DNA from: a virus
Lineage: Duplodnaviria > Heunggongvirae > Uroviricota > Caudoviricetes
DNA length: 8,124 nt
IMG/VR virus record: IMGVR_UViG_2713896783_000023
Strand: one strand, 5' to 3'
In this document: in pieces, positions 5,531 to 7,375 of the stretch
Numbering within the stretch: position 1 is the first letter of the stretch
Layout: each line of letters begins with the position of its first letter
The notes under the pieces: model-generated
What the model was told of the DNA's origin: nothing
Databases searched by the model: none
What the model saw: only the letters and a program-made list of their open reading frames with translations
Made by a program: the position numbers and the translations under genes

Positions 5531-6622
5531 ATGCGTGATTACGCAAAAGTTTCTCCGCGATTCTGGCTGGGAGAAACGGGGAGAGAACTTAGAAAGGCGG
5601 GTGCAGAAGCGCAAGTTGTTGCTTTTTACCTGATGACATCCCCTCACGCAAATATGCTGGGTTTGTATTACCTGCCAGTTTTATACCTTGCTCATGAAAC
5701 CGGGCTTGGTCTGGAAGGGGCTTCAAAGGGGCTTAAAAGGGCTGTTGAAGCTGGTTTTTGTAGCTATGACCATGATGCAGAGATGGTCTGGGTCCATGAA
5801 ATGGCAGCCTGGCAGGTTGGGGAAACGTTGAAGCCTGGCGATAACCGTTGTGCAGGTGTCAGGAATGAGTATGCATCATTACCTGAAAACGCTTTTCTGT
5901 CAGTGTTTTACGACAGATATAAAACGGATTTCCATCTGGATGTGAGGCGGAATAATAGCCGAAATTCGGTAAGGGGCTTCGAAGGGGCTTTTAAGGGGCT
6001 TCGAAGCCAAGAACAGGAACAGGAGCAGGAGAAAGAACAGGAACAGGACAAAAACACTATGGTTCATGGCAAAAAAAACACCACGAACCAGGCAGGGGAT
6101 GTTCAGACCGTCAATCCTGGTCAGCCAGCAGGCACGACACCGGAAGCCGATTCGGGCGCTGTGCAGCAGGTGATGACCGCAGGGTCGGAGCAATCACACC
6201 AACTGCAGCAGCCTGAAGCCGATTCCGCCATTCAGCGGGAAGCCGATCGGGTAGTCCCGGAAAGCACCGGGCAGTCTGTGGGACGAGTGGATTATCCGGA
6301 TGTGTTCGAACAGGTCTGGCGGGAATACCCGTTGCGTGCTGGGGCAAACCCGAAGAAATCCGCTTTCAGTGCCTGGAAGGCCAGATTGCGCGAGGGGGTG
6401 CCACCAGAGACCATGCTGGATGGTGTGAGGCGTTACGCGAGATACCTGGCGGCGACCGGGAAAGCGGGAACGGAATTTGTTCAGCGAGCGACGACGTTTT
6501 TTGGGCCGGACCGGAATTTTGAAAACCCCTGGTTGCTCCCGGTAAGCGGCACGAACAACCAGCGTTGTGTGAATCATATTTCTGAACCGGATACCGAAAT
6601 TCCGCCGGGATTCAGGGGGTGA
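5531..6622 (+). CDS. Replication initiator / replisome-organiser-like protein (lambda O analogue; 363 aa from ATG 5531, ORF-track start 5420 also possible)
   Basis: Lies immediately upstream of the DnaC-like loader. GAGG SD 5 nt before ATG 5531. Central low-complexity linker (EQEQEQEKEQEQ) and internal DNA repeats typical of an intragenic origin. C-terminal motif (YPDVFEQVWREYP...SAWKARL) resembles phage replication-protein C-terminal domains as I recall them. Confidence 0.65.
   Translation: MRDYAKVSPRFWLGETGRELRKAGAEAQVVAFYLMTSPHANMLGLYYLPVLYLAHETGLGLEGASKGLKRAVEAGFCSYDHDAEMVWVHEMAAWQVGETLKPGDNRCAGVRNEYASLPENAFLSVFYDRYKTDFHLDVRRNNSRNSVRGFEGAFKGLRSQEQEQEQEKEQEQDKNTMVHGKKNTTNQAGDVQTVNPGQPAGTTPEADSGAVQQVMTAGSEQSHQLQQPEADSAIQREADRVVPESTGQSVGRVDYPDVFEQVWREYPLRAGANPKKSAFSAWKARLREGVPPETMLDGVRRYARYLAATGKAGTEFVQRATTFFGPDRNFENPWLLPVSGTNNQRCVNHISEPDTEIPPGFRG
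5715..6050. repeat. Iteron-like repeats inside the replication gene: 3 x AAGGGGCTT at 11-bp spacing (5715-5743, third copy degenerate), 3 x AAGGGGCTT at 11-bp spacing (5971-6001), then a GAACAG-type hexamer tandem array (6011-6046)
   Basis: Read directly. Copies at 5715, 5726, 5737 (AAGGGCT) and 5971, 5982, 5993. Array GAACAG GAACAG GAGCAG GAGAAA GAACAG GAACAG. An A-rich stretch follows at 6050-6080. Confidence 0.6.
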
Positions 6623-6628
6623 TGTGGC

Positions 6629-7375
6629 ATGAAAAACATTGCGGCAGCCGGGGTTCTTGAACGTATTCGCAGACTTGCACCACAGGCGTCGGTTCCACCG
6701 TACCGGACGGTGGAGGAGTGGCGGGAATGGCAACTTGCTGAAGGACGAAAACGCAGCGAGGAGATTAACCGCCAGAATCACCAGTTGCGGGTGGAAAAAA
6801 TCCTGAATCGTTCGGGCATCCAGCCTCTGCACAGCAAATGCTCGTTTGCGAATTATCAGGTGCAGAACGACGGGCAAAAATACGCGCTGAGCCAGGCCAA
6901 ATCCATAGCTGACGAACTGATGACCGGGTGCACGAATTTTGTGTTCAGCGGTAAAACCGGCACCGGGAAAAATCACCTTGCAGCGGCGATGGGTAACCGG
7001 CTGATGGCGAAGGGGCGCAGCGTGATTATCGTCACCGTGTCTGATGTCATGAGCGTGTTGCATGACAGCTACGACAACGGCAAATCCGGGGAAAAATTTT
7101 TACAGGAGCTTTGCAGTGTTGATTTGCTGGTCCTGGATGAAATAGGCGTTCAGCGGGAGACGAAAAACGAGCAGGTGGTATTACACCAGATAATTGATCG
7201 CCGGACAGCATCACTGTGCAGTGTCGGGATGTTAACAAACCTGAATCATGCCGCAATGAGTACACTTCTTGGTGAGAGGATTATGGACCGCATGACCATG
7301 AACGGTGGTCGATGGGTGACGTTTAACTGGGATAGCTGGCGTCCAAATGTCAGCAATATGAGGGTTGTGAAGTAA
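6629..7375 (+). CDS. DnaC-like replicative helicase loader (IstB-like AAA+ ATPase, 248 aa)
   Basis: Walker A-like FSGKTGTGKNHLAAA and Walker B LLVLDEIG. Typical size and position after an O-like initiator in Rac-type replication modules (YdaV-like). Confidence 0.85.
   Translation: MKNIAAAGVLERIRRLAPQASVPPYRTVEEWREWQLAEGRKRSEEINRQNHQLRVEKILNRSGIQPLHSKCSFANYQVQNDGQKYALSQAKSIADELMTGCTNFVFSGKTGTGKNHLAAAMGNRLMAKGRSVIIVTVSDVMSVLHDSYDNGKSGEKFLQELCSVDLLVLDEIGVQRETKNEQVVLHQIIDRRTASLCSVGMLTNLNHAAMSTLLGERIMDRMTMNGGRWVTFNWDSWRPNVSNMRVVK

Follow-up and report, generated by a model that had tools for sequence, protein, structure and literature searches.

The subject of this analysis is a phage replication initiator gene and the short repeats that lie within it. 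The window, by which we mean the whole 8,124-nucleotide stretch analysed (IMG/VR record IMGVR_UViG_2713896783_000023), matches a lambdoid (Rac/Qin-like) prophage of Escherichia coli O157:H7 at 100% identity, and the repeats are interpreted below as a probable iteron-type origin of replication embedded in the initiator gene. The start of this gene is placed at 5531, corresponding to M38 of the open reading frame (ORF) 5420-6622, in line with the PGAP annotation and with the coverage of the PHROG profile, which begins at M38. The features on which the argument turns are as follows.

5531..6622, plus strand: replication initiator (replisome-organiser) gene, 363 aa (PGAP coding sequence in the identical O157:H7 record; PHROG 1701 and 3729; AlphaFold2 (AF2) models)
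5558..5950, plus strand: coding region of the winged-helix N-terminal domain (N-domain), residues ~10-140
5715..5751, plus strand: putative iteron cluster 1, with AAGGGGCTT at 5715 and 5726, a degenerate copy, AAAGGGCTG (7/9), at 5737 and a GAAGC half-site at 5747-5751
5971..6008, plus strand: putative iteron cluster 2, with AAGGGGCTT at 5971, 5982 and 5993, all exact, and an AAGCC half-site at 6004-6008
6011..6048, plus strand: (GARCAR)n hexamer array of six units, coding for the EQEQEQEKEQEQ linker (TRF, period 6, 6.3 copies)
6050..6080, plus strand: A-rich stretch, the opening part of the exchangeable C-terminal module, with an A8 run at 6071-6078
6051..6622, plus strand: C-terminal module, comprising a disordered PEADS-repeat region and a helical domain (residues ~274-324) (PHROG 3729; AF2 model)
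6629..7375, plus strand: DnaC-like helicase-loader ATPase (AAA+), the downstream partner gene (NCBIfam PRK12377, Pfam IstB_IS21, PHROG 50)

The 363-aa product is named 'hypothetical protein' by PGAP, and matches PHROG 1701 ('DnaD-like helicase loader', E = 1e-148) and PHROG 3729 ('replication initiation protein', E = 1e-125). In spite of the label of PHROG 1701, it is not a member of the DnaD/DnaB_2 families by sequence; a search of Pfam-A with hmmscan gave no match at E <= 0.01 and only a spurious one, PhyR_sigma2, at E <= 10, and the family profile, run against the sequences of the PDB, gave none. In the AF2 models, the N-terminus is occupied by a winged helix, modelled with confidence, which a disordered linker joins to a helical module at the C-terminus. 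Within the winged helix, H1 (residues 25-36), a beta strand (45-47), H2 (50-57), H3 (60-73) and the wing strands (77-80 and 85-88) follow one another in the H1-b1-H2-H3-b2-wing-b3 topology, and there are structural matches to known DNA-binding winged helices. The C-terminal module, which probably contacts the helicase loader, shares ~92% identity with genes named 'replication protein O / replisome organizer' in many E. coli phages whose N-termini are different. The product of the partner gene scores 509 bits against NCBIfam PRK12377, over the cutoff, and 299 bits against the DnaC equivalog, under it. The last 24 residues of the initiator (6551-6622) bear a weak likeness to the C-terminus of the primosomal protein DnaT (NF002770, E = 0.002, far under the cutoff) and the Pfam DnaT DNA-binding domain, PF17948, is found in some homologues; these traces hint that phage initiator-loader gene pairs may be linked to the dnaT-dnaC operon of the host. 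The initiator family is present in ~470 complete E. coli genomes and in Shiga toxin (Stx) phages such as POCJ13 and 75/02 Stx, as well as in Acinetobacter and Klebsiella phages and many beta-proteobacterial prophages.

Repeats inside the initiator gene

A first-pass annotation, made from the sequence of the window, had placed a putative replication origin within this gene, with AAGGGGCTT occurring three times in each of two clusters. This is accurate for cluster 2, whereas cluster 1 comprises two exact copies and the 7/9 match at 5737. The coordinates agree with the 11-bp spacing of the copies and the ~256 bp between clusters that had been described, the cluster starts being 256 bp apart, and in both clusters the 11-bp register is kept throughout, including the terminal half-site in the fourth register. 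AAGGGGCTT is the commonest 9-mer of the window, and its arrangement is far from what would be expected by chance; in a test which left out window 1161-1210, where 50 consecutive N stand for masked or unknown bases, three adjacent pairs of the same 9-mer at 10-12 bp were counted in the window against a mean of 0.054 in 500 Markov-1 simulations, and one triplet at this spacing against none in the 500.

Cluster 1 codes for residues 62-73, within helix 3 of the winged helix, and cluster 2 for RGFEGAFKGLRS at the end of the N-domain, a low-confidence segment of the model which is probably disordered. As the 11-nt period is not a multiple of three, the same AAGGGGCTT 9-mer is read in three frames, as E-G-A(-S), K-G-L and R-G-F. 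The repeat is therefore indifferent to reading frame, which points to the DNA, and not the peptide, as its target. The duplicated peptide motifs GLEGASKGL and GFEGAFKGL to which the first-pass annotation drew attention can be seen in the translation.

Downstream of cluster 2, the order is AAGCC, then (GAACAG)6, then the A-rich stretch; the hexamer array said to follow the second cluster was recovered by TRF at 6011-6048, and TRF found no further repeat array in the window. A search for DnaA boxes gave no match near the initiator gene. Further downstream, three copies of CCGGAAGCCGATTC, at 6140, 6212 and 6236, lie where the C-terminal module is disordered and give rise to the PEADS peptide repeat (window 6140-6249).

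Conservation of the repeats as DNA

A search with the N-terminal 159 aa of the initiator gave 364 relatives at 40-80% identity. A scan of one genome per species gave 80 loci, from the Enterobacterales, Acinetobacter, Stenotrophomonas, Burkholderiales and others, and 79 of the genes, from loci with a GC content of 36-69%, were aligned by codon. Two copies of AAGGGGCTT, at gene nt 185 and 196, are present in almost all of the 80 loci. In the codon alignment, cluster 1 is close to invariant at synonymous positions, with GAA in 99% of homologues, GGG in 99%, GCT in 77%, AAG in 100%, GGG in 84% and CTT in 86%, followed by GAA for E73 in 98%; at the other invariant glycines of the protein, the top codon has a share of 34-63% and GGG just 10-30%. 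For 67 other conserved codons, normalised codon entropy is 0.82; the value is 0.22 in cluster 1 (Mann-Whitney p = 2e-8) and 0.32 in cluster 2 plus the AGC-CAA that follows it (p = 4e-5). The freezing of codons is alike in low-GC and high-GC hosts and, as synonymous sites are saturated in the rest of the gene, it is not explained by recent common descent. Over all loci, the density of exact 9-mers is 6.4 per kb between gene nt 150 and 520, whereas the 387 kb of flanking DNA has 0.044 per kb. An antisense gene was considered as the source of the synonymous constraint and rejected: although antisense frames are often open in GC-rich homologues, no minus-strand ORF of at least 50 aa runs across cluster 1 in the window, and an ORF would be unable to yield an 11-nt period.

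Cluster 2 carries the argument further. In about 60 of 78 loci it consists of two to three copies of the reverse complement, AAGCCCCTT, so that the peptide encoded is EAPSKPL instead of EGASKGL, and in other homologues it is found in direct and in mixed orientations. The motif, kept on either strand while the peptide changes, thus behaves as a duplex-DNA site. The spacing of the repeats among homologues is 11 nt in 144 of 167 intervals, and cluster 2 always terminates in AAGCCA[AG], with Ser159 encoded by AGC in 100% and Gln160 by CAA in 86%. The repeats are also found outside coding DNA; five loci of Acinetobacter type (L012, L018, L030, L041 and L059) have two to three extra 9-mers in either orientation, at 11-bp spacing, within the 40 bp of non-coding DNA before the ATG and overlapping the Shine-Dalgarno region. 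These upstream copies are probably an autorepression operator, a common possession of iteron initiators. Conservation at the protein level without conservation of the DNA would, by the first-pass annotation, have counted against its reading; the frozen synonymous sites and the inverted cluster 2 instead place them under selection as DNA.

The hexamer array is as constant in position as it is variable in length. In 78 of 79 homologues it stands directly after AAGCCA; the number of units is 1-16, and at least three in 77 of the 78. It is read as EQ in 73 of 78 loci. In L046, L054, L055, L065 and L080, it falls into frame +1 because the spacing upstream is 12 nt and not 11 nt, and is read as GAGAGA, RARAGAG or IAVAVAV; four of the five have ORFs of normal length (295-318 aa) and L046 stops at 187 aa. 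The same pattern of frame shift is seen in database proteins with GAGAGA or GTGTGT linkers. That the array would be prone to frame-preserving slippage had been anticipated, and near-identical IMG/VR relatives indeed differ in its length by steps of 6 nt, between 19 and 61 nt, while one E. coli allele is shorter by one unit. An E. coli O103:H2 allele, 98.3% identical overall, is 24 bp longer across 5300-6700, with the extra bases outside 5680-6130. In the mean of 74 loci, no segment has a stronger purine skew than the array (purine fraction 0.79), whose GC content is 8.5% under the locus mean; a second dip in GC (-12%) lies ~100 nt 5' of it.

The N-domain and the repeats are inherited together. 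Among the homologues, no fewer than 22 unrelated C-terminal modules follow them, and the gene that comes next resembles DnaB in 26 loci and DnaC in 16, and is of another kind in the remainder; with C-modules and neighbours so varied, the N-domain is the sole constant protein partner of the repeats. Within E. coli, ~1500 genomes share the sequence of the window only from 6051 on, where it is fused with another N-module ('phage replisome organizer'), so that a mosaic junction lies at ~6051, just past the array. It follows that the A-rich tract belongs to the exchangeable C-module, outside the conserved core of the putative origin. The first-pass annotation had counted this tract as part of the origin. 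The stretch itself is real, with its A8 run and an AT skew of +0.74 over 6000-6099; at a GC content of 0.47 over the same interval, it is A-skewed rather than AT-rich, and it is not conserved in distant homologues. Of the two purine-rich elements, it is the hexamer array that is conserved, and not the A-rich tract.

The alternative N-module offers an instructive comparison. The allele in the E. coli 14EC001 prophage (L084) shares with the window the C-module from 6051, the DnaC-like partner, the upstream YdaS/YdaT genes and the layout of two clusters plus an array. It differs in its N-module, in which no N-domain similarity to the present family was found by hhalign, in its iteron and in its array unit: four copies of GTCACG at 10-bp spacing lie inside the N-domain coding region (954-990 of the L084 locus), five more follow 250-260 bp downstream (1214-1260), the spacing being 10-11 bp overall, and then come (ACAGATAAAGAT)n (1261-1295) and the mosaic junction. 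The same layout with another iteron is what would be expected if every N-module brings its own cognate origin.

A candidate origin and its alternatives

At least three phased repeats of one short sequence, selected as DNA, are the general mark of an iteron origin, and such repeats are present here. We read them as an iteron-type origin embedded in the initiator gene, with the AAGGGGCTT clusters bound by the winged-helix N-domain, and put the probability of this reading at roughly 0.72. That the repeats are bound by their cognate initiator is suggested by their co-inheritance with the N-domain and by the module swap which changes the iteron. We infer further that the N-domain is the binder and helix 3 its recognition helix; the firing of the origin and the site of unwinding are likewise inferred.

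The following mechanism can be proposed. Monomers of the initiator would bind head-to-tail along a single face of the helix at 11-bp intervals, and the two clusters, ~255 bp apart, would be gathered into one nucleoprotein complex. Winged-helix proteins of the OmpR/PhoB type are known to bind 11-bp direct repeats. The resulting stress may melt the purine-rich, relatively low-GC DNA flanking cluster 2, whereupon the C-terminal module would recruit the DnaC-like loader and host DnaB. Both clusters and the AAGCC-(GARCAR)n tract would together form the prophage origin and, such an origin being in coding DNA, cluster 1 would double as the code for helix 3 whilst cluster 2 and the array would double as the code for the inter-domain linker.

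An arrangement of this kind has well-studied parallels. The O proteins of lambdoid phages are modular, with N- and C-modules that have been exchanged between phages. In lambda, the iterons and an AT-rich tract are located in the middle of O (PMC7466680), and the first-pass annotation had accordingly spoken of an O-like gene that mirrors lambda. As regards architecture and layout within the gene, the comparison is sound: in lambda O/ori-lambda, including the six-iteron variants of Stx phages, and in this locus, the origin (putative here) lies inside the initiator gene, tandem initiator-binding repeats (again putative here) are followed by a strand-asymmetric region that codes for an inter-domain linker, and the N-domain sets the specificity for the origin while the C-terminal part meets the helicase-loading partner, as we presume it does here (PMC7466680). 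It does not extend to homology with lambda O, as the N-domain is without Phage_rep_O similarity (no Pfam match even at E <= 10). Moreover, lambda has four contiguous ~19-bp inverted-repeat iterons with an AT-rich tract beside them and lambda P as the partner, whereas here 9-mers at 11-bp spacing form two separate clusters, one of them within the region coding for the DNA-binding domain, the neighbouring (GARCAR)n array, at about 50-60% GC, is not clearly AT-rich, and the partner is a DnaC/IstB-like AAA+ loader, or a DnaB-like helicase in other members.

In phage SPP1, oriL is embedded in gene 38, where G38P binds AB boxes that have an unwinding element beside them, and the loader and helicase are encoded downstream (PMC5737612). 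G38P and the present initiator both lack an AAA+ domain and have an origin within their gene (putative here), and some members of the present family carry PF09524, the C-terminal Pfam domain assigned to G38P (PMC5737612). Unlike G38P, the initiator has no match to Phage_rep_org_N (PF09681) at E <= 10, the sequence and geometry of the repeats differ, and the AT-rich unwinding element of SPP1 has no clear counterpart here. There is no sequence homology to the winged-helix initiators of iteron plasmids (staphylococcal RepA_N, PDB 4pta/4pql; the Rep family). Iterons in plasmids are usually 17-22 bp long and lie outside the rep gene; the present sites differ in their phage context and in their position inside the gene. 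By sequence and by iteron geometry, and for lambda also by the partner protein, the locus is a member of neither family; it would work as lambda O/ori and SPP1 G38P/oriL do, by analogy and not by homology.

Of the other explanations, the most serious is that the repeats do bind the initiator but serve in autoregulation or copy control, as an operator or by 'handcuffing', with the true origin elsewhere in the prophage. In some lineages, the ribosome-binding site and the 5' region of the gene are overlaid by phased 9-mers, which resemble just such an autorepression operator, and there is no clear AT-rich unwinding element beside the clusters. Set against this, the position in the gene by the linker-coding region agrees with the mapped origins of lambda and SPP1 (PMC7466680, PMC5737612), exact 9-mers are nearly absent from the 2.5-kb flanks, and the window contains no other repeat array; purely regulatory repeats are, in our view, unlikely. 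Regulatory and initiation roles often coexist in iteron systems. It is harder still to see the 9-mers as the sites of some other factor of phage or host, such as a repressor or nucleoid protein, or as the target of a methyltransferase. The shortness of the motif is in favour of this, but the hosts range over beta- and gamma-proteobacteria, the N-domain alone accompanies the motif whilst neighbours and C-modules vary, another N-module brings another iteron in the same layout, and no DnaA box is nearby, all of which makes such a factor very improbable.

A role of the repeats in RNA or single strands, with mRNA hairpins at the pseudo-palindromic repeats, pairing of cluster 1 with an inverted cluster 2, or ribosome pausing at the Shine-Dalgarno-like AAGGGG tuning translation of the initiator, has a number of observations in its favour; RNA from 5700-6060 gives a better fold than shuffled sequences do (z = -3.0), with local hairpins at both clusters, most homologues have a cluster 2 complementary to cluster 1, and AAGGGG is similar to the Shine-Dalgarno core. 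Nevertheless, cluster 2 occurs in both or mixed orientations, and the Enterobacterales, including the window, have lost the pairing and show no change that would compensate for it. AAGCCCC, the inverted form, is equally conserved without being Shine-Dalgarno-like, the spacer dinucleotides required for the local hairpins are variable, the repeats are present in non-coding DNA too, and a scan of the region against Rfam was without any family. Little probability can thus be given to this explanation. Least credible of all is that the duplicated peptide motif (GLEGASKGL / GFEGAFKGL) was selected as protein and the likeness of the DNA is a by-product. Although EGASKGL is highly conserved in the protein, synonymous sites are fixed whatever the GC content of the host, the copies stand in three frames, the inverted cluster 2 encodes another peptide and copies exist in non-coding DNA; by these comparisons, a pure peptide repeat is already contradicted.

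Several observations nonetheless weigh against an origin at this site. No clearly AT-rich DNA lies next to the iterons and no classical DNA-unwinding element is evident. The array could be kept mainly as a linker peptide, given its free third positions (entropy 0.89) and its reading as EQ in most loci. The distance between the clusters shifts in ~12-nt steps among homologues, so that helical phase is not kept. Four homologues of Undibacterium type (L074, L079, L081 and L082) are without the in-gene 9-mers; their helix 3 is altered (TAANLAAGL), and a search of the four for replacement iterons found none that were convincing, the candidates being a weak periodicity of ACCTT at 11-nt spacing before the array and, in L079, L081 and L082, one exact AAGGGGCTT in intergenic DNA ~920-940 nt upstream (the L074 contig ends short of this region). 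The prophage copy in the window is degraded by an IS66 insertion downstream and may have lost the ability to fire, and a literature search found no published description of this origin or initiator family.

A bolder version of the iteron-origin reading, which we regard as doubtful, is that the origin is self-referential: the recognition helix (residues 60-73) would be encoded by its own binding-site cluster, and the array would be the unwinding or single-strand-binding element. Specificity and target would then be locked in the same nucleotides, which would explain the near-total freezing across two proteobacterial classes. The universally kept (GARCAR)n array would in that case be a phage analogue of the 'DnaA-trio', the trinucleotide repeats found next to DnaA boxes.

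Taken as an iteron origin within an initiator gene, the locus is best explained as a well-known kind of system, served by an initiator family that is widespread, uncharacterised and without a Pfam domain. If this is true, the origin and the iteron code of the family would be given by AAGGGGCTT at 11-bp phase, AAGCC and the GARCAR array, thus supplying a minimal origin for mini-replicons and for studies of prophage induction in enterohaemorrhagic E. coli. The repeats are also a natural example of overlapping protein and DNA codes, and the combination of an 11-nt period with frozen synonymous sites could serve as a signature of in-gene origins; the N-module allele with the GTCACG iteron shows the layout to be a general one among replication modules of this class.

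Prophage context

Upstream of the initiator gene, the early region of the prophage comprises the following.

3599-4000, minus strand: cI-like repressor
4109-4381: YdaS/Cro-like gene
4365-4790: YdaT/CII-like gene

Between these and the initiator gene, two ORFs overlap on opposite strands. The plus-strand ORF, 4753-5313, matches phrog_8304 (E = 6e-120), and the minus-strand ORF, 4997-5452, is annotated by PGAP as an 'ECs1072 family phage-associated protein' and is without a PHROG match; one of the two annotations is probably wrong. Just 3' of the replication module, an IS66-family element, ISEc8, splits a DUF977 gene (10159-12471 of the locus from the O157 genome, L001). On the other side of the immunity region, towards dicB, the annotation of the identical record has a RelE/ParE toxin and RelB antitoxin pair at 3093-3571 (minus strand), and the antisense small RNA DicF was identified at 1369-1420 (minus strand) as a full-length match to Rfam RF00039 (76.9 bits), adjoining the prophage dicB/ydfB genes.

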